From a virus (Duplodnaviria > Caudoviricetes): a stretch of DNA of 33,990 bases. The notes beneath the pieces were generated by a model. It worked only from the letters and a program-made list of their open reading frames with translations. It had not been told where the DNA came from and did not search any database. The stretch is from positions 1 to 33,990 of IMG/VR virus record IMGVR_UViG_3300037631_003346; one strand, written 5' to 3'. The position numbers and the translations under genes are program-made. Of the stretch, positions 1,076 to 26,880 are shown piece after piece (positions within the stretch are counted from its first letter, which is position 1; each line of letters starts with the position of its first letter).

Positions 1076-1200
1076 TGGCAAAGCTAGTCATAAGCAATTA
1101 TCGTGCGTCTAATCGCACTAAAAGGCCCGGTGTGCATTCTAAAAATGCATCACCAGGGCAAAATAAATATAAAAAGAAATATAGAGGTCAAGGTCGTTAA
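1075..1200 (+). CDS. Small basic protein ending YRGQGR, 41 aa
   Basis: Manual translation MAKLVISNYRASNRTKRPGVHSKNASPGQNKYKKKYRGQGR; TAATG overlap with the holin stop; a C-terminal YRGQG motif recurs in small phage proteins. Confidence 0.75.
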   Translation: MAKLVISNYRASNRTKRPGVHSKNASPGQNKYKKKYRGQGR

Positions 1201-1205
1201 ACACA

Positions 1206-1604
1206 GTGATTACAGAACTTAAATATTTTACATTCGAAGATTTTGACTGTCCTTATTCTAGGTTTCCTGATACAGGATTCAAGTATATGGATAGAGAATT
1301 CTTGTCTATGTTACACGAAGCTAGAAGACTATGTAAGATAAAATTCAAGATAATTAAAGGATATGTTTCACCGGATGGTGTATTAATGGCCAATGAACTC
1401 AGTAACTCTTCTCACTTAATAGGTCGAGCTTGCGAGATCTGGTGTAAAGATAATTATAAGAGATATAGGATAATTACAGCTTTACTTGAAGTTGGTTTCA
1501 CTAGAATAGGTTTTTCAGACGATAGAATCTATGTAGATAATGATGATATGAAACCAGACTCAATATGGCATTTTAAAAGAAAATTAGCAAAAAGGTTTAT
1601 ATAA
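1206..1604 (+). CDS. Second M15A-like peptidase with a degenerate active site
   Basis: LKYFT..DFDC, SSHLIGRACEI and GFTRIG fit the short M15A subfamily, but ligand positions are altered. Confidence 0.7.
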   Translation: MITELKYFTFEDFDCPYSRFPDTGFKYMDREFLSMLHEARRLCKIKFKIIKGYVSPDGVLMANELSNSSHLIGRACEIWCKDNYKRYRIITALLEVGFTRIGFSDDRIYVDNDDMKPDSIWHFKRKLAKRFI

Positions 1605-2959: not shown

Positions 2960-3784
2960 ATGCAAGATAAGTTTAACCTCCTCAGTAATAAAACTTATGT
3001 AGATCCAAAAGAATCTATAGAATATCCTCCAGTTGCCTTATCATATGGGCAATACAAAATAAAAGACAATTATTATCCTATACCTATAGGAACATATGGT
3101 AATTTCAGTTTCATTCAAGCCGCTCCTAAAAGTAAAAAAACATTCCTAGTATCAATGTTATGTGCTGTTTATTTAGCTGATAAAACTAAATTAACCGGCA
3201 ATATTAAAGGCCACAGAAGAAACCTTAGACTTGTTCATTTTGATACTGAACAAGGTCGGTTTCACGCTCAAAAAGTGTTTAAAAGAGTTCTGGACATATC
3301 TAGAAACAATAATGAAATGTACGATACTTATGCATTAAGAGTATTATCTGTACAAGAAAGAGTAGATTTTATAGAATTATATTTACAAAGATATGGATCT
3401 GAATTAGGAATGATGGTTATTGATGGAGTTGCTGATTTAGTTATGGATGTAAACGACATAAAAGAATCTAGTGACATTGTACAAAGAATATTAAGATGGT
3501 CTGAGTTTTATGATATTCATATTATATGTGTAATACACACTAACTTTAATTCAAATAAAGCTACCGGACATTTAGGATCCCACTTAGAAAAAAAGACGGA
3601 GACTCAAATACAATTAAACGTAAGTGAAGAAAATGAAGATATAGTAAAAGTTACTTGCAAAAGATCCAGGAGCTTTGCCTTTGAAGAGTTTAACTTTGAA
3701 GTAACAAAAAATGGTATCCCTATAGTATTAGATAAAATAGATGACATATTAAAATTAAACAATGGAACTAACTTTAAGTTTTGA
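2960..3784 (+). CDS. RecA-like AAA ATPase/helicase (AAA_25/RepA-like)
   Basis: Walker A variant AAPKSKKT, HFDTEQG, Walker B VIDGVAD, CVIH and GHLGS motifs. Confidence 0.8.
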   Translation: MQDKFNLLSNKTYVDPKESIEYPPVALSYGQYKIKDNYYPIPIGTYGNFSFIQAAPKSKKTFLVSMLCAVYLADKTKLTGNIKGHRRNLRLVHFDTEQGRFHAQKVFKRVLDISRNNNEMYDTYALRVLSVQERVDFIELYLQRYGSELGMMVIDGVADLVMDVNDIKESSDIVQRILRWSEFYDIHIICVIHTNFNSNKATGHLGSHLEKKTETQIQLNVSEENEDIVKVTCKRSRSFAFEEFNFEVTKNGIPIVLDKIDDILKLNNGTNFKF

Positions 3785-6622: not shown

Positions 6623-6818
6623 AAGTTCTGTTAGTTTACTTTATTTTAATTTAACAGTAGATGATTTTATGGCTGGAGCTTCAATCAGGCAAATACAATC
6701 TAGCTTAAAGTTCTATGAAGAACTAGAATTGTACGATGAATGTCAGGGAATATTTATGGCAATTAAATATTATAAAATAATAATGAGAACCTTTATAAAT
6801 AAAAGATATGAAGATTAA
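6549..6818 (+). CDS. Hypothetical protein (YEELELYDECQGI motif)
   Basis: ORF track; start codon uncertain. Confidence 0.6.
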   Translation: MILSVQERENLEEQLRIISDTLDFKSSVSLLYFNLTVDDFMAGASIRQIQSSLKFYEELELYDECQGIFMAIKYYKIIMRTFINKRYED

Positions 6819-7362
6819 AGAAGTAAGAAGTTTTATAGAAGATAAAACTCAATTAGATATAGGCAAGAAATCAAGAAGAAGAGACTATGTATATGCAAGA
6901 GCTATGTTCTTTTATTTATCTAAAAAATATGCTAGAGCAACTTACCAAGCTATGGCGAAAGAAGTTAAATGTAATCACGCAAGTGTAATCTATTCTATAA
7001 GACATACTGTACCAGTAATATTTAGAGAAGAGCCTCAATTAAAAAGATTGTGTGATCACTTTGTTTCTTTATTTACAGAAGAGATCGTATCAGATACTAA
7101 AAGTAAATCAGATATTATTTCTGAAAACATAGATCTTAAAATAAGATTATCTAGATACCAGGACGCTGAAGCTAAAGATAATAAACTTAAGGTTACTCAA
7201 AACACAATAGACTCTAGGTTTGCAAAATTAATAGAGCAAACTCCTGAAGACAAAATAGATAACTTGTATATCAGAATGGAGGCTATAGTTAGAATGTTAA
7301 ATACTGAATGGAAAGATAAGATAACTGTATATTCAAGCTATGAAACAGTTAATGGTTATTAA
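6808..7362 (+). CDS. DNA-binding protein with a DnaA C-terminal-like HTH
   Basis: KSRRRDYVYARAMFFYL...TYQAMAKEVKCNHASVIYSIR resembles the DnaA domain IV pattern (R....V.AR..AMYL...IG....RDHTTV.H). Confidence 0.7.
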   Translation: MKIKEVRSFIEDKTQLDIGKKSRRRDYVYARAMFFYLSKKYARATYQAMAKEVKCNHASVIYSIRHTVPVIFREEPQLKRLCDHFVSLFTEEIVSDTKSKSDIISENIDLKIRLSRYQDAEAKDNKLKVTQNTIDSRFAKLIEQTPEDKIDNLYIRMEAIVRMLNTEWKDKITVYSSYETVNGY

Positions 7363-7601
7363 TGGCCAGGAAGAGAAAAATAAAGAAAAGAGTCGTCTAT
7401 GATCCTAAAATAATAAGCTGGTGTATTAATAAAGGTTATAAACTCTATCCAGTTCCTGAAGGAAAAGAATACAGGATAGTTTTAGAATATAAAGGGATGA
7501 AAAAGAAATCAGAACTTTTATATAATAAAAAGAAATGGAGCGAAAGAATATGGGAAGTATATGGATTAATATACAATAAAGAATGCCAAGAAAAAAAGTA
7601 G
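7362..7601 (+). CDS. Hypothetical basic protein
   Basis: ORF track; TAATG coupling; WCINKGYKLYPVP motif. Confidence 0.65.
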   Translation: MARKRKIKKRVVYDPKIISWCINKGYKLYPVPEGKEYRIVLEYKGMKKKSELLYNKKKWSERIWEVYGLIYNKECQEKK

Positions 7602-7987
7602 AAAGAAAATATATGAAGAAGACCGATGGTCGAAAGAACAACGGTCAAAAGAAAGGAGACGCCGTTCTTAGAAGAACTATGGCTACTCCTGCTAATATAA
7701 ATAAAGCAAAGAAGAATAGATCTAAAATGCTTGCTACTGGTGCTATTAAAGAGGTTTATGGATCTGAAGAAGCTTTCTGGGTTATGGTAGCAGAAAACGC
7801 TAAAGATTCTCAGTTTGATAGAAAAATGATATTAGAATATATTTATGGTAAAGCTAGAGATAATGTAGATGCTTCTTCTGCTAATGATAAAGTAGATATC
7901 TCTATTATGAATTTCTTTCAAGGCACTCCAAAGATAGAAGAGAACACAATTGATATAGAATCAGAAGATGAAGACACCGAAGCTTAA
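7583..7987 (+). CDS. Putative terminase small subunit
   Basis: Directly upstream of and overlapping terL; DGRKNNG and LEYIYGK motifs; acidic tail. Confidence 0.55.
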   Translation: MPRKKVERKYMKKTDGRKNNGQKKGDAVLRRTMATPANINKAKKNRSKMLATGAIKEVYGSEEAFWVMVAENAKDSQFDRKMILEYIYGKARDNVDASSANDKVDISIMNFFQGTPKIEENTIDIESEDEDTEA

Positions 7988-9179
7988 TCATAAATACCAG
8001 GCCTTTGGAAATGATTCAAGATACTTTATTGTAACAGGAGGTAGAGGATCCGGTAAATCTTTTGCTGCTAACGTATTCTTATTGTTGTTAACTTATGAAA
8101 GAGGACACAAGATTCTATTTACAAGATATACAATGGTATCCGCAGCTTCATCTATTATTCCAGAATTTATAGAGAAGTTAGAAATTATGGGTGTGGTCGA
8201 AGACTTTAGAATAACTAAAGACGAGATCACAAACATTAAAACAGGATCTAGTATTTTATTTAAAGGTATTAGAACAGCATCAGGAAATCAAACAGCAGCT
8301 TTAAAATCATTAAATGCTATTACTACATTCGTTTTAGATGAAGCAGAAGAATTAACAAATGAAGATGACTTTGATAAAATTGATCAGTCTGTTAGGGTAA
8401 GGACTAAACAGAATAGATGTGTTCTTATATTAAATCCAACTACTAAAGAACATTGGATCTACAATAGATTTTATGAGAATAGAGAAATACCAGACGGCTA
8501 CAATGGAATGAAGAATAGTATTACCTATATACACACAACCTATAAAGATAATGTAGATAATCTATCTATATCATTCTTAAATCAAATACAAGACATAAGA
8601 AGAAGAAGACCGGAAAAATATACTCATCAGATCCTTGGAGGCTGGTTAGAAAAACAGGAAGGGGTTATCTTTAAAAATTGGAGAATAGGAGAGTTCAATG
8701 AGAACTATGATATATATTATGGGCAAGACTTTGGATTCTCAATAGATCCAACAGTCTTGACTAAATTAAGTATTGATAGAAGAGGTAGAAGAATATATTG
8801 TAAAGTAATGTATTGTAAGCCTGGGCTTTCTACAACTCAGATAGCAGACTATAATATAAGATATGCAGGCCCACATTTAATTATTTGTGACTCAGCTGAA
8901 CCTAGGCTTATAAATGAAGTTAAACTCAAAGGGGTTAACATAAGACCTACAATAAAAAGAAAAGGATCTATATTATCTGGTATTGCTCTTCTACAAGACT
9001 TTGATTTAATTGTTGATCCTGATTCAACAGAATTAGTTAAAGAATTAAATAATTATGTTTGGGCCACCAAAGGCCAAACAAAACCAGTTGATCGTTGGAA
9101 TCATTGTATTGACTCAATCCGCTATGCGGCTCAATACGCTTTAGAAGGATTCTCTAAAGGAAGTTACTCAATTCGTTAA
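7968..9179 (+). CDS. terL: Terminase large subunit, PBSX/SPP1-like
   Basis: Walker A GGRGSGKS, Walker B VLDEAEE, LNP coupling motif, GQDFGFSIDP nuclease motif, NHCIDSIRYA. Confidence 0.95.
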   Translation: MKTPKLNHKYQAFGNDSRYFIVTGGRGSGKSFAANVFLLLLTYERGHKILFTRYTMVSAASSIIPEFIEKLEIMGVVEDFRITKDEITNIKTGSSILFKGIRTASGNQTAALKSLNAITTFVLDEAEELTNEDDFDKIDQSVRVRTKQNRCVLILNPTTKEHWIYNRFYENREIPDGYNGMKNSITYIHTTYKDNVDNLSISFLNQIQDIRRRRPEKYTHQILGGWLEKQEGVIFKNWRIGEFNENYDIYYGQDFGFSIDPTVLTKLSIDRRGRRIYCKVMYCKPGLSTTQIADYNIRYAGPHLIICDSAEPRLINEVKLKGVNIRPTIKRKGSILSGIALLQDFDLIVDPDSTELVKELNNYVWATKGQTKPVDRWNHCIDSIRYAAQYALEGFSKGSYSIR

Positions 9180-9216
9180 ACGCAGTAGGGTTAGACTCTT
9201 AAACGCAGTAGGGTTA
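9176..9216 (+). repeat. Repeat cluster 1: two TTAAACGCAGTAGGGTTA copies (9176, 9199; 23-bp period)
   Basis: Read directly; the first copy contains the terL stop codon. Confidence 0.95.
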
Positions 9217-9221
9217 AGATC

Positions 9222-9362
9222 TTAGTTAACTTCGTTACCTTTGGAATCAATAACCTTGTAGTTATTATCTTTTAAAAGTTTTACTGCATCATCTATTGTC
9301 TTTTGAGTTTTCCTAAAGTGATCAAAGATTTGATTTTCAAATGCATTATTTTTTATGTACAT
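9222..9362 (-). CDS. Small hypothetical protein, 46 aa (MYIKNNAFENQIFDHFRKTQKTIDDAVKLLKDNNYKVIDSKGNEVN)
   Basis: Manual minus-strand translation; AT-rich leader; upstream minus-strand TAACTTTG box. Confidence 0.75.
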   Translation of the reverse strand: MYIKNNAFENQIFDHFRKTQKTIDDAVKLLKDNNYKVIDSKGNEVN

Positions 9363-9389
9363 ATCTATTAATTTTATTAAGTTTACTTC

Positions 9390-9450
9390 TTAAACATAGT
9401 AGGGTTTAGTTCTTAAACGCAGTAGGCTTCCCGCTGAACTCAGTAGGCTT
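9390..9450 (+). repeat. Repeat cluster 2: TTAAACATAGTAGGGTT (9390), TTAAACGCAGTAGGCTT (9413), CTGAACTCAGTAGGCTT (9434)
   Basis: Read directly; one near-exact and two degenerate copies. Confidence 0.9.
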
Positions 9451-9507
9451 CCAGATCCATCTCTGGAATTTCCTCTGTTGCCTCGAAGTAGATCTCTGTT
9501 CATACTT

Positions 9508-9515
9508 CAAAGTTA
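9508..9515 (-). promoter_or_regulatory. Minus-strand TAnnTTTG promoter box (TAACTTTG)
   Basis: CAAAGTTA on the + strand; points toward the 9362..9222 gene. Confidence 0.6.
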
Positions 9516-9579
9516 AGAAAATTTTAACATATTCTTAACATTAATTTAACATTAGACAAAAAAATAGTTTGTAGTATTG
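9513..9579 (+). promoter_or_regulatory. 11-bp-periodic TTAACA array (9513 TTAAGA, 9524, 9535, 9546) plus TAGTATTG -7-like box (9572)
   Basis: Exact 11-bp spacing seen in the sequence; lies upstream of ORF 9603. Confidence 0.75.
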
Positions 9580-9602
9580 TATCAAACATTAAAAATAATT
9601 AT

Positions 9603-9866
9603 ATGGAAAAAGTTGAAAAGTTTATCGAAGAGACTTCTAACGGGAAGATCTTCAGCGCAACATTCGTAAAAAAGAATGGTACTATCAGAACTATTCATTG
9701 TCGCAGAGGCGTCAAGAAAGGTCTGACTGGTAAAGGTATGGCCTATGATCCTGGATCTAGAGGCCTATTAGTTGTCTATGATTTATCTAAAAAGAATTAT
9801 CGTATGATAAATTTAGCTAAATTAATTGAAGCTAAAGTTAATGGTTTAATCTATAAATTTATTTAA
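9603..9866 (+). CDS. Small SH3/Sm-like beta-barrel protein (WYL_2-like)
   Basis: FSATFVKKNGTIRTI...LLVVYDLSKKNYRMIN fits the F.K.dG..R / V.D.....R.. pattern. Confidence 0.6.
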   Translation: MEKVEKFIEETSNGKIFSATFVKKNGTIRTIHCRRGVKKGLTGKGMAYDPGSRGLLVVYDLSKKNYRMINLAKLIEAKVNGLIYKFI

Positions 9867-9867
9867 T

Positions 9868-10350
9868 ATGAAAGAACCTTATAAAAAAGTGATAGAGTTC
9901 TACAAGAACTCATCACCTAAACAACATCAATACTTTTTAAATCTGATTAGTGATCAAATGACATTCTTTAATCAAGAGACTAGAGAGCAATTTGATATAG
10001 ACAATGATCGCTTAATTGAATTTAATGGCATATTTCATCAGTTAAATTTAAAAGGTAGTTACGACAGCACTTTCGTGAAAGATCCCAGTATTGAATCTCT
10101 AATCGATTATGAAAGACAATCTGTTGGTTATGCTGAGTCAGATGCTAGTAGTGACGAAGATATTCTAGCTAGTTTAATTTCTAAATATTGTGAATGGGAT
10201 GGGGCTTTTATTTACAGATTAGCAAGAGAATGTTTTACAGAATGTAATCATCATACTTTTAACAAAGCTTTTGAGAAGCTTTGGGAAAAGGAAATACTTA
10301 AAACAGATCACATAAATAAAAAAGATAAAAATGAAAACGATAATAAATAA
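9868..10350 (+). CDS. Hypothetical early protein
   Basis: ORF track, 160 aa, in operon. Confidence 0.7.
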   Translation: MKEPYKKVIEFYKNSSPKQHQYFLNLISDQMTFFNQETREQFDIDNDRLIEFNGIFHQLNLKGSYDSTFVKDPSIESLIDYERQSVGYAESDASSDEDILASLISKYCEWDGAFIYRLARECFTECNHHTFNKAFEKLWEKEILKTDHINKKDKNENDNK

Positions 10351-10627
10351 AATTAAACAATACAATCGCAAGTCAATGCGAAATGTTAAGAACACTAGAG
10401 AAGAAATTGATAACTATATAAAAATTGAAGTTGTTTCATCCTGGACGATTAAGGGCGATGCTAAAGAACATAGAGATACCTTAGCAAACCTAGAAATATA
10501 TTCCTGGACTATCACATCACAAGAGTTAGAATTACTTGTAGAGGCGCTTAAATGCGTTTATTCAAATCATCCGGATGGGGAGGTTAAAATGGAAGTCACA
10601 CATAATCACGAATACTTAAATTGTTAA
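10331..10627 (+). CDS. Hypothetical early protein
   Basis: ORF track, 98 aa. Confidence 0.65.
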   Translation: MKTIINKIKQYNRKSMRNVKNTREEIDNYIKIEVVSSWTIKGDAKEHRDTLANLEIYSWTITSQELELLVEALKCVYSNHPDGEVKMEVTHNHEYLNC

Positions 10628-10628
10628 T

Positions 10629-10763
10629 ATGATAAAGTGTAATAAATGTTCATCAGAAATTGTAAAGAAAGGCGGAGTCTTTTTCTGTTACAATTGCAAG
10701 GGTTATAAAATGTCTTATGAGACATATAAGTTTAATTCATTAATAAATAGTTATGATAAATAA
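10629..10763 (+). CDS. Small zinc-ribbon protein, 44 aa (MIKCNKCSSEIVKKGGVFFCYNCKG...)
   Basis: Manual translation; CxxC-x12-CxxC; fills an operon gap. Confidence 0.7.
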   Translation: MIKCNKCSSEIVKKGGVFFCYNCKGYKMSYETYKFNSLINSYDK

Positions 10764-10968
10764 TAAAATTAAAATAGTTAGACCAATGAGAGTTTGGTTC
10801 AGGAGCTTCTGGATCCTAATGAATGATATATTCAATCCAAAAGTAGCAACACATAAATGGACTAGATATCCAATGTATGCTAAAGATCAAAAAGAAAAAG
10901 ATCTTATCATTGCAAGTAAAGTAGAAACGTTAAACCAGAATATTAAAATTAAGAATTATGACTTATAG
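10753..10968 (+). CDS. Hypothetical early protein
   Basis: ORF track, 71 aa. Confidence 0.6.
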   Translation: MINNKIKIVRPMRVWFRSFWILMNDIFNPKVATHKWTRYPMYAKDQKEKDLIIASKVETLNQNIKIKNYDL

Positions 10969-11152
10969 TGAAGACATCCAGAGAATTGAATCTCAACACC
11001 TGAGATTAATTCTCAATAAGCAAGCAGATACAATAGACGAATTGAGAATAGAAGTTGTTACACTTCATTCAAGAATAGAAGTCTTGTTAGCAAAAATAGA
11101 AGTCCTGGAACAAAAAGTTGAACAGGATATAATTAATAATAAATTAAATTAA
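10958..11152 (+). CDS. Hypothetical coiled-coil protein
   Basis: ORF track; heptad pattern. Confidence 0.65.
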   Translation: MTYSEDIQRIESQHLRLILNKQADTIDELRIEVVTLHSRIEVLLAKIEVLEQKVEQDIINNKLN

Positions 11153-11160
11153 ATAAAGTT

Positions 11161-11391
11161 ATGAGTAAAAATAATCACACTTACGTTCACAGTATTGATG
11201 GGATCCACGGATCTGACGGAGAGGTTTACGTTAGTTATGGGAAAGATAAAGAGCTAACAATAGAATCTGAAAGCCTTTGGTTTTTCCTTCCGGATTTAAT
11301 TAAGATAGCAATACAGCAAAAGAAAGTTTCTAATGAGATCCAGAACTTGCACATTGAATCGGCTGTTAAATTATTAAAGGATACACTATGA
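11161..11391 (+). CDS. Hypothetical early protein
   Basis: ORF track, 76 aa. Confidence 0.65.
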   Translation: MSKNNHTYVHSIDGIHGSDGEVYVSYGKDKELTIESESLWFFLPDLIKIAIQQKKVSNEIQNLHIESAVKLLKDTL

Positions 11392-11534
11392 AAAGAAAAG
11401 ATTTTATAAAGACATATATTTTGCCATATGAAGAAGACTCTTCAATTATAAAATATTTAGAAGGTTCAATGGATTATGATGATGACTATTTAGAAGAAGT
11501 TGCAAGTAATATTAATGTTAAAATAAAACACTGA
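11388..11534 (+). CDS. Small acidic protein, 48 aa (MKRKDFIKTYILPYEEDSSIIKYLEGSMDYDDDYLEEVASNINVKIKH)
   Basis: Manual translation; ATGA overlap with the upstream stop. Confidence 0.65.
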   Translation: MKRKDFIKTYILPYEEDSSIIKYLEGSMDYDDDYLEEVASNINVKIKH

Positions 11535-11537
11535 TTC

Positions 11538-11630
11538 TTAAACGCAATAGGGTTGCCAACTTCATTAAACGCAATGGGGTTGGCAATTTCTTAAACGCAG
11601 TAGGGTTTCTTTCTTAAACGCAGTGGGGTT
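11538..11630 (+). repeat. Repeat cluster 3: four TTAAACGCARTRGGGTT copies (11538, 11565, 11591, 11614)
   Basis: Read directly; spacers 10, 9 and 6 nt. Confidence 0.95.
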
Positions 11631-11647
11631 AGCCCTCCAAAATCAAA

Positions 11648-11811
11648 TGTTAAAATTCTGTTAAAATTTTGGTAGATTAAAATATTTTTTGTATTGGCAA
11701 ATTTTCGGGCTTGATTCATTTGCGCAATTTAGAAACGTTTTAAATAATTTAGATAGCGTCAAATGTTAACAATTCGTTAACATTAGCAAACCAATTTTAA
11801 ATATATATTTG
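11648..11811 (+). promoter_or_regulatory. TTAACA pairs (inverted at 11648/11659; forward at 11766/11777) plus TATATTTG -7 box (11804-11811)
   Basis: Both pairs have 11-bp spacing; perfect TAnnTTTG box upstream of ATG 11835. Confidence 0.75.
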
Positions 11812-11834
11812 TGATTCACTTTAAAAAAATAAAT

Positions 11835-12632
11835 ATGTCAAATTTTCAAACTACATTAAAAAGAACTATTAATGAGATTAACGGGTTTCAGGTTCCTAAA
11901 AAATTATTAAGCCAGGGAACGACGAACGCAAAAACAAAAAAGAATAAGTTAAAAACTTTTATTCTTTATTTAGCGCCTTATAACCAAAACAGTAAAGGGG
12001 TTAACATTTGCCCGCACGCCTCCAAAGGATGCGCGGTCTCTTGTCTGTTTTCAGCTGGCCGGGGTAAATTCTCAAACGTTGTAAAATCCAGGATAAATAA
12101 AACCGAATATTTTCTTAGGGATAAAAAGAATTTTTTGCACCAATTACATAAGGAAATAATACAAGAATATTACAAAGCAAAAAAAGGTAATTATAAAATT
12201 GCGATCAGATTAAACGGAACTTCAGACCTTGATTTTTTACACTTATTGCGGGTTAACTTTGGTTTCTGTTCAGAAAGTTACGCCGATAATATGGTTTTTT
12301 ATGATTATACAAAAGACATCAGAAGAGCAATAAAGTACAAAGATTTTAATGAGTATAATTATAAATTAACCTTTTCACATTCTGAATCTAACTCATTAAA
12401 TTGTGATCTAGCCATAAGAAACAAAATAAACGTTGCTGTAGTTTTTGAACAGATGCCAATAAAATATTTAGATACCTGGGTTATTAACGGGGATCAAAGC
12501 GATGATATTATGCTGGATCACTCGGGCGTTATTTTGGGCCTCAAGGCCAAAGGCGACGCGCGAACAGATCAAAGCGGTTTTGTAATTAAAAAAGATAATA
12601 AATATATAGAATATGATGTTTTACCCTTCTAG
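11835..12632 (+). CDS. GP88-like (mycobacteriophage gene 88 family) Cys-cluster protein
   Basis: ILYLAP, NICPHASKGCAVSCL..AGRG, IRLNGTSD, FYDYTK, GLKAKG motifs; ATG 11835 preferred over GTG 11811. Confidence 0.8.
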   Translation: MSNFQTTLKRTINEINGFQVPKKLLSQGTTNAKTKKNKLKTFILYLAPYNQNSKGVNICPHASKGCAVSCLFSAGRGKFSNVVKSRINKTEYFLRDKKNFLHQLHKEIIQEYYKAKKGNYKIAIRLNGTSDLDFLHLLRVNFGFCSESYADNMVFYDYTKDIRRAIKYKDFNEYNYKLTFSHSESNSLNCDLAIRNKINVAVVFEQMPIKYLDTWVINGDQSDDIMLDHSGVILGLKAKGDARTDQSGFVIKKDNKYIEYDVLPF

Positions 12633-12750
12633 TTATTACGATCCACCCAGCCAGGATCCGCCGAACTTTTGCGCATTCTGTGAAAAAGAGATCCCCGACA
12701 ATAAAGTTTATTGCTCCAGCTCTTGCCTGGTTAATGATTCAGAACTTTAA
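12613..12750 (+). CDS. Small treble-clef-type Zn finger protein, 45 aa (…FCAFCEKEIPDNKVYCSSSCL…)
   Basis: Manual translation; CxxC...YCSxxC. Confidence 0.7.
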   Translation: MMFYPSSYYDPPSQDPPNFCAFCEKEIPDNKVYCSSSCLVNDSEL

Positions 12751-12801
12751 ACGCAATAGGCCTCATTAAACGCAGTGGGCCCCATTAAACGCAGTGGGCC
12801 C
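12747..12801 (+). repeat. Repeat cluster 4: three TTAAACGCARTRGGCC copies (12747, 12766, 12785; 19-bp period)
   Basis: Read directly; the first copy contains the stop codon of 12613..12750; T7 run at 12808-12814. Confidence 0.95.
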
Positions 12802-12837
12802 GCCTGCTTTTTTTCAGGTTTCAGAGCTCCCAAAATT

Positions 12838-12894
12838 TTAACAAAACTTTAACATTTCTTTAACATTTATTTAACATTTTGCGCCTTATATTAG
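12838..12894 (+). promoter_or_regulatory. Four TTAACA boxes at exact 11-bp period (12838, 12849, 12860, 12871) plus TATATTAG -7-like box (12887)
   Basis: Read directly; upstream of ORF 12936. Confidence 0.8.
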
Positions 12895-12935: not shown

Positions 12936-13208
12936 ATGAGTAAACAAAAAAATTTATTTCAATTGCTTAAACCAGAAGCAAAAAAAAGCCTGGTAAGAAA
13001 CAGAATACAATTTGAGGTCGTTATAGATATGATCATTGAAAACTTAAAAAGGAATTACAACGTTTCAGATTTAACGATTAGACAAGTTAATAATATTTAT
13101 TTATTTTCTGACATTGACTATCCACAAAGCCCGGTTGAGGCGATGTATTGTGAACCTTTATTTTTTAAAAATGATGAAGAATTAACTTTCCAGGACGATG
13201 AAAAATAA
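12936..13208 (+). CDS. Hypothetical early protein (NLFQLLKPE motif)
   Basis: ORF track, 90 aa; AT-rich leader. Confidence 0.7.
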   Translation: MSKQKNLFQLLKPEAKKSLVRNRIQFEVVIDMIIENLKRNYNVSDLTIRQVNNIYLFSDIDYPQSPVEAMYCEPLFFKNDEELTFQDDEK

Positions 13209-13302: not shown

Positions 13303-13586
13303 ATAATATTTTAACAGACAACAAAACAATTAAAAATTTTACTAACGTGGAATTTATTAACCATATTATGCAAACATCACATATTCACCAGGTCGCAAGC
13401 CTTAAAGTTTTTGAGCTGGGAATGAAATCTATTTTAAGCGAAAAAGAACAACTATTGAAAGAATATGAGGAACACCAGGAAAAACTAAAAAAAGAAAATA
13501 AAGTTTCTATAGCTTTTCATATTCCTACAATGATGAGAATAATTGAAGAAATGCAAACCGCGTTTAATCTAAAATATAATAACTAA
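13299..13586 (+). CDS. Hypothetical early protein
   Basis: ORF track, 95 aa. Confidence 0.7.
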   Translation: MNNILTDNKTIKNFTNVEFINHIMQTSHIHQVASLKVFELGMKSILSEKEQLLKEYEEHQEKLKKENKVSIAFHIPTMMRIIEEMQTAFNLKYNN

Positions 13587-13741
13587 TGACAGTAATTGAA
13601 CTAATTAACGAACTAAAAAAACATCCTGAAAATTCGGATGTTATAACAGATAATATTGCACCAAATAAAGAAAGGGAATTTGTTTTTGGAACTTTTATGA
13701 ATGAAGACGGAGACACAATTTTATCAACTTATTTAAAATAA
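13586..13741 (+). CDS. Small hypothetical protein, 51 aa (MTVIELINELKKHPENSDV...)
   Basis: Manual translation; MTV.ELI..L N-terminus is common in small phage proteins; TAATG coupling. Confidence 0.7.
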   Translation: MTVIELINELKKHPENSDVITDNIAPNKEREFVFGTFMNEDGDTILSTYLK

Positions 13742-13962: not shown

Positions 13963-14142
13963 TTTTTAAACTGGATATCCAGACAGAGAAAAATTAACGT
14001 AAAACGGAAGGTCTATACACCACTATACTAAGTTTAACCAAATCAACCCAAAACAGGTTTAATAGTTTAGAAAAATAAAGTTGTTTACGGGTGTATCTGA
14101 GAAAAGAATATAGTTACCCCAAAACCTCTCTTTATGTATTAA

Positions 14143-26274: not shown

Positions 26275-26880
26275 ATGAGTTGCGATTTAACACAAGGAAG
26301 ACAAAGACCGTGTAAGGACTCAGTAGGAGGTATAAAAGCCGTTTATTTCATTAACTATGGTACAACTGACGTTACTTATGATGGTAGTAATGCAGATGAA
26401 ATTGATGGGCTTGGATCTGGACTTTCTGCTTACAGATACGATCTTAAAGGCAATTCTAATTTAGAACAAACAATTAATTCTTCTACTGATACTGGAGGAA
26501 CATTCTTTGAGCAAGTTCTAACATTAGTTTTACCTAAATTAACACTAAAAGACCATAAAGAAATTAAATTATTGTCTTTTGGAAGACCACACATTATTGT
26601 AAAAGATAATAACGATAATTATTTCTATGTAGGTAATGAACACGGAGCTGATGTAACTGGTGGAACTATTTCTACTGGATCTGCAATGGGAGATCTAAGT
26701 GGATACAATTTAACTTTATCTGCTCAAGAAAGACAACCTGCTAACTTTATTTCAGTTTCTGCTGAAACAGATACTGAATTAACTTTAGGAGACTCAAGTA
26801 CAATTACTGTTGTACCTGGAGTTGCTAGTGATGTAGATGTTGATGATGATCCATCAGGAATACCAGGAGGAGGAAACTAA
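26275..26880 (+). CDS. Major tail (tube) protein
   Basis: MSCDLTQGR..PCKDSVGGIK, GTFFEQ.L, G.AMGDLSGY.LT motifs. Confidence 0.7.
   Translation: MSCDLTQGRQRPCKDSVGGIKAVYFINYGTTDVTYDGSNADEIDGLGSGLSAYRYDLKGNSNLEQTINSSTDTGGTFFEQVLTLVLPKLTLKDHKEIKLLSFGRPHIIVKDNNDNYFYVGNEHGADVTGGTISTGSAMGDLSGYNLTLSAQERQPANFISVSAETDTELTLGDSSTITVVPGVASDVDVDDDPSGIPGGGN

Follow-up and report, generated by a model that had tools for sequence, protein, structure and literature searches.

A polar 14-mer repeated after the large terminase gene of marine Flavobacteria phages and shared with chromosomal satellites: a candidate packaging signal

The DNA analyzed here (hereafter the window) is the whole of IMG/VR virus record IMGVR_UViG_3300037631_003346, 33,990 nts in length, and the element in question is a 14-mer that recurs in tandem clusters downstream of the terminase genes. 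The window represents a 34-kb tailed phage in which every core gene lies on the + strand, in the order lysis, ERF, AAA_25 helicase, RusA, ECF-type sigma factor, ExoVIII, DnaA-C helix-turn-helix (HTH) protein, probable terS, and terL. An early island (9.2-14.8 kb) lies 3' of terL and is followed by tail and head genes. No integrase, cI-type repressor or cas gene was found among the window proteins. The nearest isolate is Nonlabens phage P12024L (terL 50%, capsid 29%), which has an identical gene order, and the window phage probably belongs to Flavobacteriaceae EVG group 1 (PMC5332604, PMC7198788). The features that carry the main finding are as follows.

9176..9212, + strand: cluster 1, the conserved cluster, with two exact copies of the 14-mer (9176, 9199), period 23 bp
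9390..9447, + strand: cluster 2, with copies at 9390, 9413 (exact) and 9434 (degenerate), periods 23 and 21 bp
11538..11627, + strand: cluster 3, four exact copies, periods 27, 26 and 23 bp
12747..12798, + strand: cluster 4, three exact copies, periods 19 and 19 bp
1197..1210, + strand: degenerate copy with 3 mismatches, inside which the GTG start of 1206..1604 lies; in relatives a full pair takes its place
7968..9179, + strand: large terminase (TerL), Terminase_3 / Terminase_3C by domain match, a candidate reader of the 14-mer
7583..7987, + strand: probable small terminase (TerS), judged by position and a basic N-terminal arm, a candidate reader of the 14-mer

An earlier note on this DNA had listed twelve copies, all on the + strand, and all were recovered at those positions. 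Ten are exact (9176, 9199, 9413, 11538, 11565, 11591, 11614, 12747, 12766, and 12785) and two are degenerate, namely 9390 (2 mismatches), which has the form of lineage B with AT at positions 7-8, and 9434 (3 mismatches). At up to 3 mismatches the window contains 27 matches, compared with a mean of 8.8 in shuffled sequences, and none of 100 shuffles reached 27. There is no further exact copy in the window, as had been claimed, but the degenerate copy at 1197 marks a site that relatives fill with a full pair. The reported periods of 19-27 bp also hold, whereas the reported linkers of 2-10 nt become 5-13 nt for a 14-mer; the shorter range is right only when three 5' flanking bases are counted in. 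The described overlap with stop codons was reproduced: the terL stop (9177-9179) is the TAA of the first copy in cluster 1, the first copy of cluster 4 gives the stop codon of 12613..12750 through the same TAA, and cluster 3 starts 4 nt past the TGA of 11388..11534. The last copy of cluster 4 extends into a terminator-like hairpin (12793-12815).

We then looked at relatives of the window phage. A tandem pattern search over 37 of the 64 parts of viral_contigs matched 165 stretches, which gave 60 non-redundant long loci (17 overlapping loci were skipped). All 60 come from relatives of the window, and in all of them the motif lies on the strand of the genes; exact copies in 61 sequences are divided 289 to 0 between the two strands. 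Among relatives chosen by terL alone (80 loci, 7 of which ended at or in terL and were left out), a copy was present within 200 nt of the terL end in 73 of 73. At 56-66% terL identity, variants occupy the same site (TTAAACATAGTAGG, TTTAACATAGTA(GG/CC), TTTAAYATTAT(GG/CC), and TTTAACATGAGGG), and variant clusters in 80 distant loci are again confined to one strand (70 versus 0). No clear array was seen in three island-bearing loci (L413, L454, and L455). Motif clusters were not found in phages whose terL abuts the first tail gene, nor in two island-less genomes with a short TerS; the long form of TerS (7583..7987 type) is confined to motif-bearing phages.

Of 202 pattern matches in 31 near-complete genomes, 157 fall in the 4 kb that follow terL. 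The number of exact-pattern copies per genome ranges from 0 to 15, and several near-complete genomes have the first cluster, after terL, as their only one. The fixed feature is the cluster after terL; the punctuation of the early region described in the earlier note is not the part that is conserved. Inside terL, 26 of 27 alleles that encode K-R-S-G use exactly the codons that spell the motif, although the background shares of these codons are low (CGC 0.08, AGT 0.18, and GGG 0.14); the site is therefore under selection as DNA or RNA. Outside the phages, a scan of 401 genomes found the pattern in one, where it belongs to a satellite. Matches in host chromosomes are near control level, with 3-9 per strand and both strands alike, so that the motif is neither enriched nor strand-skewed there and a host signal of the Chi/KOPS type was rejected. 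The earlier proposal of a repeated polar binding site for a phage factor thus stands insofar as the motif is conserved at the same position, lineage-specific, strand-fixed, kept in terL codons, and not enriched in hosts; the partner proteins it named are considered below. Arrays containing the same 14-mer were also seen in nine gut contigs (L157, L237, L240, L271, L282, L283, L294, L296, and L305) with GC contents of 0.46-0.49 and Prevotella-like genes. They are variable, consist of up to 12 or more 22-bp units (an even period) between convergent genes, and have no phage genes; the shared 14-mer is likely a coincidence.

The spacing of the copies follows a rule of odd versus even numbers, not of helical phase. 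Seven of the eight periods in the window are odd, and the periods found among relatives are 17, 19, 21, 23, 25, 27, 29, and 33. Distinct linkers are odd in 199 cases and even in 31, six of the latter coming from the unrelated gut array. Relatives are not independent in such counts; the rule holds within each motif lineage, and when linkers are grouped in families the numbers are 45 odd versus 17 even (p = 5e-4). Adjacent spacings in near-complete genomes are odd in 133 of 149 cases, and both parities of position are present in 68 of 70 clusters (49.8 expected). Parity is not preserved from one cluster to another (29 of 46 odd). As a control, TTAACA boxes adjoining the clusters peak at 11 and 22 bp. 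Binding sites of an iteron origin, one of the functions suggested in the earlier note, would be phased at multiples of 11 or 21-22 bp, which the motif periods do not follow.

Twenty pattern loci have no phage genes. They comprise the nine gut contigs, five short island fragments, and six integrated elements, and the last group contains four distinct elements (L159; L236/L292; L289/L298; L291), each with exactly two copies 17 bp apart. The pair is always antisense to the element's own genes (int/xis/pri/terS-like) and points away from the terS-like gene, just as the phage copies point away from terS; it has no fixed distance from a promoter. L159 lies in a Flavobacteriaceae genome between tRNA-Arg and a partial tRNA-Arg copy, and carries an integrase, an excisionase-like HTH gene, cargo, a ribbon-helix-helix (RHH) gene, and a small terS-like gene. 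A tyrosine integrase, an excisionase-like HTH protein, and insertion at a tRNA end with duplicated att sites, by which phage-inducible chromosomal islands (PICIs) and virion-encapsidated integrative mobile elements (VEIMEs) are recognized, are all present in it. L298 adjoins mnmE. L292 and L298 encode a DUF6371 primase, and L298 also an AAA_25-HTH helicase. For L159 and L292, the pair is the only DNA shared with phages among the blastn matches listed, besides a tRNA, and it is kept where satellite flanks have fallen to 77-79% identity or have been replaced.

Members of the terS-like family were found in 32 of 48 genomes from the genus of G001. Its small gene has an E 0.6 match to a gene directly before a terL, and its nearest named Atlas clusters are small terminases (0.78-0.82, lead level). 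Fold predictions for the phage TerS and for the small satellite protein had low confidence and gave no match, Pfam and PHROG gave none for the window's own 7583..7987 protein, and a search of viral_contigs with the satellite genes recovered no related locus. G001 and other genomes of its genus contain, and L159 and L388-L406 exemplify, a large family of satellite-like islands, several to a genome, that are integrated at a tRNA or mnmE, end on one side with the terS-like gene, and differ in their replication modules (primase-helicase or rolling-circle Rep). Two further observations concern attachment and repeats. The phage genome G477 contains, at about 26590-26644, a tRNA-Arg stretch that is 80% like the L159 attachment site, and a primase-type island without the pair (L566, in G437) has a different 11-bp tandem repeat at about 1290-1330, upstream of an RHH gene, which starts like the motif.

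A second cis element, E2, is common to phages and satellites and lies at the far end of the early island.

13997..14045, + strand: E2, a 49-bp unit of the form ACGTAAAAYGRA-N~24-TTTAAWMAAATCA

E2 is often doubled with a 49-bp period. It is present in 28 of 29 motif-bearing genomes, the exception being a genome that starts at the first late gene, and in neither of the two island-less genomes. Profile matches were obtained in satellites L159, L291 (twice), L292, L298, L389, and L396, in the orientation of the pair; L389 and L396 have E2 without the pair, and G437 has neither. All seven satellite E2 units are closest to those of G450/G465/G466 (34-41 of 49 nt, median 24-28), and the clusters of this clade themselves use the 17-bp linker found in satellites. 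Read depth over the island is not doubled (e.g., 371-410 in X1 versus 438-455 in late genes), which argues that most molecules do not have the early island as a long terminal repeat. Two other signals were set aside and not used as evidence: a depth step of 10-20% near 13.6-14 kb in four runs may reflect strain splitting, and the repetition of terL at both contig ends of G454, where copy numbers differ, may be an assembly product.

With about even confidence, we interpret the 14-mer as a polar pac-type packaging signal that would be read by the phage terminase and mimicked by satellites. The site is polar, follows the phage lineage, and adjoins terL, and islands with replication genes of their own retain a minimal form of it; a packaging signal is the simplest explanation of this combination. 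It shares with pac-type sites a short directional form linked to the terminase genes, as well as mimicry by satellites of the same host group. A primase is encoded by both L292 and L298, and a helicase by L298, so that a need for the helper is plainer for packaging than for replication. On this model TerS/TerL would be the reader, and the 14-mer would act together with E2, one of them marking the packaging start and the other a pause or cut. Retaining the pair may let the satellites have their DNA cut and packaged by the helper terminase.

The parity rule could belong to the same mechanism. Parity without helical phase suggests a reader that moves in two-base steps, and motors of the T4/lambda type have an exact 2-bp step. 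An odd gap would set neighboring copies in opposite registers, so that a ring ATPase stepping by 2 bp would find one of them in frame; alternatively, cuts in a 2-bp register might keep rewriting linkers to odd lengths. Packaging ATPase subunits contact DNA about every 2 bp (PMC8104870). That the parity of spacing carries information in this way, with a ring motor reading the 14-mer in one register and the 14-mer plus the 49-bp unit serving as a helper barcode, is an idea we offer tentatively and would not yet bet on.

Several observations weigh against packaging or against its proposed mechanism. The sequences analyzed were assembled contigs. The trees do not single out the terminase: motif types require the minimum of 6 changes on the trees of TerL and TerS; AAA_25, ERF, and an SSB-like gene fit them equally well, and trees of the sigma factor, the 5090, 6549, and 7362 genes, and DnaA-C need one or two changes more, these being FastTree trees of 39-44 rows that discriminate weakly and do not separate terminase from helicase. 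Parity is not absolute, with 16 of 149 spacings even and one 26-bp period in the window itself, and gaps are mostly odd even in four-copy clusters, beyond what the presence of both registers would need. Steps measured for phi29 were 2.5 bp falling to 2.3 bp (PMC7617512, PMC8104870), which would not hold parity. In addition, most satellites of the same family have no pair (0 of 19 regions around the small gene, and none in G437), and the terS-like protein compared with TerS reaches an hhalign probability of 0.1-0.2, with no significant profile or fold match. Finally, a motif pair lies on the tail-tube stop codon directly before an intrinsic terminator in several genomes, which suits a role in transcription.

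Three other proteins enter the discussion as possible readers.

2960..3784, + strand: AAA_25 helicase without a primase domain, a rival reader
6808..7362, + strand: DnaA-C HTH protein, a reader proposed in the earlier note
9603..9866, + strand: WYL_2 Sm-like protein, a reader proposed in the earlier note

The two readers named earlier fit poorly. WYL_2 occurs in 14 of 29 motif-bearing genomes and is missing from 15. All 51 type A loci have DnaA-C, but the recognition helix of this protein is variable whereas the motif stays the same, and its gene is missing from one lineage (G477/L409 and L408), which has variant arrays. A likeness of the motif to the DnaA box (2 mismatches to the consensus) was set aside on the same grounds. 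Likenesses to REP/GTAG, ops, boxA, serine-recombinase, and G-quadruplex sequences fail on the AT/CC variants or for want of inverted pairs. The distribution of the motif is matched by long TerS, AAA_25, and the 6549 protein.

AAA_25 is the basis of the strongest alternative, a replication signal, in which E2 would serve as an origin and each 14-mer pair as a loading site or a one-way fork barrier for this hexameric helicase of SF4 type, copied by satellites together with E2 for replication by the helper. We consider this possible, though on balance improbable. AAA_25 is found in 29 of 29 motif-bearing genomes and in neither island-less one, and its tree needs only the minimum of changes. SF4-type hexameric helicases step about 2 nt per subunit, and such a helicase explains parity as well as a packaging motor does. 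Near E2, the GC skew measured at fourfold sites changes from negative values to values around or above zero; however, this skew is weak and due to single genes, and a barrier at cluster 1 predicts a change there, where the negative skew instead continues through terL and the middle genes. Among the satellites, L159, L291, and L389 carry E2 with the primase lacking or broken (pri-rep is missing in L159 and broken in L291) and G437, which has a primase, carries neither element, yet L292 and L298 hold an intact primase and both elements. The satellite pair follows pri, where PICIs keep their ori (PMC6092414). No initiator co-occurs fully, given the loss of DnaA-C in G477, the spacing lacks iteron-like phase, and no origin-binding domain was found in AAA_25.

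A role in transcription was weighed against the signals that surround the clusters.

9524..9551, + strand: three TTAACA boxes with an 11-bp period, before the first early promoter region
11727..11745, no strand assigned: Fur-box-like palindrome with 3 mismatches to the Riemerella consensus (PMC5609570), upstream of the GP88 gene (11835..12632), which encodes a Cys-rich protein
9222..9362, - strand: 46-codon open reading frame (ORF) that separates cluster 1 from cluster 2; some close relatives have lost it between motif copies

Similar TTAACA runs occur at 11648-11664 (reverse), 11766-11782, and 12838-12876, as well as in many relatives, with an 11-bp geometry that we take to be of the OmpR/PhoB-family type; a two-component regulator of the host, for instance the phosphate one, may act on the early genes. 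Fur-box-like palindromes were also seen in L020, L028, L034, L058, and others, and phage early genes may likewise be under host iron control. The motif could then be a polar roadblock or a factor-dependent termination or antitermination site that closes transcription units and insulates host-regulated early promoters, which we regard as unlikely. It is asymmetric, co-oriented with all genes, and often lies over stop codons (terL, 12613..12750, and, in several genomes, the tail-tube gene); copies come just ahead of terminators or of Fur and TTAACA boxes, and 41 of 70 Fur-like boxes that have an upstream copy are 20-43 nt from it. Stoperators of the L5 type are also asymmetric and oriented (PMC9283540). 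On the other hand, the pair is antisense in all four satellites and is not tied to a promoter, the window has neither an integrase nor a cI-type repressor, and both candidate readers named above are missing from some motif-bearing phages. The RNA of the clusters has no shared fold (z-scores -0.3, 0.8, -2.3, and -2.1) and no Rfam match of note, and a DNA-bound repressor leaves parity unexplained.

Other features of these regions are recorded here. Tiny antisense ORFs lie between the first two clusters, as at 9222-9362 in the window, where the stop codon falls at the place a motif copy would start, and spacers of like size occur in L001, L029, and L034. A palindrome at about 7550 in L058, in the early promoter region 3' of a cluster, is parS-like, and a GTAGG-N6-CCTAC palindrome pair lies near in L028 and L058. 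In G450, G451, G452, G457, G469, and G474, a conserved GGTACA...GTTAT word about 30 nt before the first late gene, near the start codon, is a candidate promoter that the phage sigma factor would use. In the window, the lysis and replication genes have a long, almost pure A/T repeat tract (1579-1755) between them.

Two explanations remain with very low probability. According to the first, satellite copies would be decoys or sensors and the phage site would serve another DNA process, such as ejection or end protection; this is quite unlikely. The pair is present in only some satellites, and the island cargo is typical of defense hot spots, but a decoy needs neither a fixed orientation to island genes nor a matching E2, and four motif-bearing genomes have no ExoVIII, which would be the obvious enzyme for end processing. 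The least probable is that the clusters are PeSL- or attC-like recombination hot spots for early-gene swaps, with ERF-type annealing maintaining the arrays: in four contigs, 164 bp have gone missing between copies that belong to clusters 1 and 2, a common deletion stops 4 nt short of cluster 3, and L291 and L298 diverge directly 5' of the pair, but most gains and losses among 32 close relatives fall at gene junctions off the clusters (e.g., 9867, 10646-10752, 11812-11850, 12984-13201, and 13581-13739), single-cluster genomes still have a variable island, there is no hairpin and no site-specific recombinase, and selection inside terL codons and carriage by satellites would go unexplained. The module swapping at the clusters proposed in the earlier note was therefore largely not borne out; what survives of it is that one loss and that one deletion.

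The 14-mer is a real polar cis signal that has apparently not been described. The string was not found in the literature searched, with supplements outside that search, and the excerpts of PMC5332604, PMC7198788, and PMC9618062 make no mention of such a repeat. For a family of marine Flavobacteria phages that is abundant and has hardly been cultured, it indicates where the DNA-processing signals probably lie, and the odd-spacing rule bears on how a terminase or helicase reads sequence while moving. VEIME satellites of marine origin include Flavobacteria-integrated elements whose helpers are described as still to be identified (PMC9618062); the shared cis sites tie chromosomal satellites to a specific helper clade, a pairing left open there. 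If the proposal is true, the 14-mer and the 49-bp unit would form a barcode that pairs uncultured marine satellites with a lytic helper clade.

With regard to known systems, P12024L differs from the window phage: its terL is not followed by an early island, and it lacks both the arrays and E2. The clusters are not a CRISPR array, in agreement with the earlier note: linkers are mostly 3-19 nt versus unique spacers of 25-40 nt, and there is no cas gene. Integron attC sites were rejected because GTT 3' of the motif is not conserved and the window has no integrase. T4-type PeSL cassettes are similar in having repeats in a variable early region next to host-type promoters (PMC2839356), but the present repeat contains no promoter plus stem-loop and swaps occur mostly off it. 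L5-type stoperators are asymmetric 13-14-mers co-oriented with transcription in short intergenic spaces (PMC9283540). They are dispersed as more than 20 single sites, in contrast to tandem clusters (0-15 copies) here, where there is no temperate module or cognate immunity repressor and the satellite copies are antisense. The headful pac and cos sites of SPP1 (pacL/pacC/pacR), P22, and lambda (cosQ/cosN/cosB) are closer, being short, directional, two-part sites by terminase genes that are shared with islands (PMC7617512, PMC6092414); PICIs carry the helper cosN or pac (PMC6092414), and SPP1-type phages have the same TerL family (Terminase_3). Unlike them, the site described here lies 3' of terL rather than in or before terS and has no cohesive-end palindrome, and a parity rule is not described in the excerpts of that literature (PMC7617512, PMC6092414). 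The remaining parallel is phage ICP1 and its satellite PLE, in which 14 bp match the ICP1 pac site exactly and are required for transduction (10.1101/2024.04.22.590561). In that system function was tested, whereas here it is proposed from sequence, and the tandem repeats, odd spacing, up to four clusters with single in-gene copies, and second 49-bp unit are particular to the present phages. In both cases, a lytic-looking helper is accompanied by a satellite that has its own candidate packaging proteins and shares almost no DNA with the helper but an identical 14-bp site.

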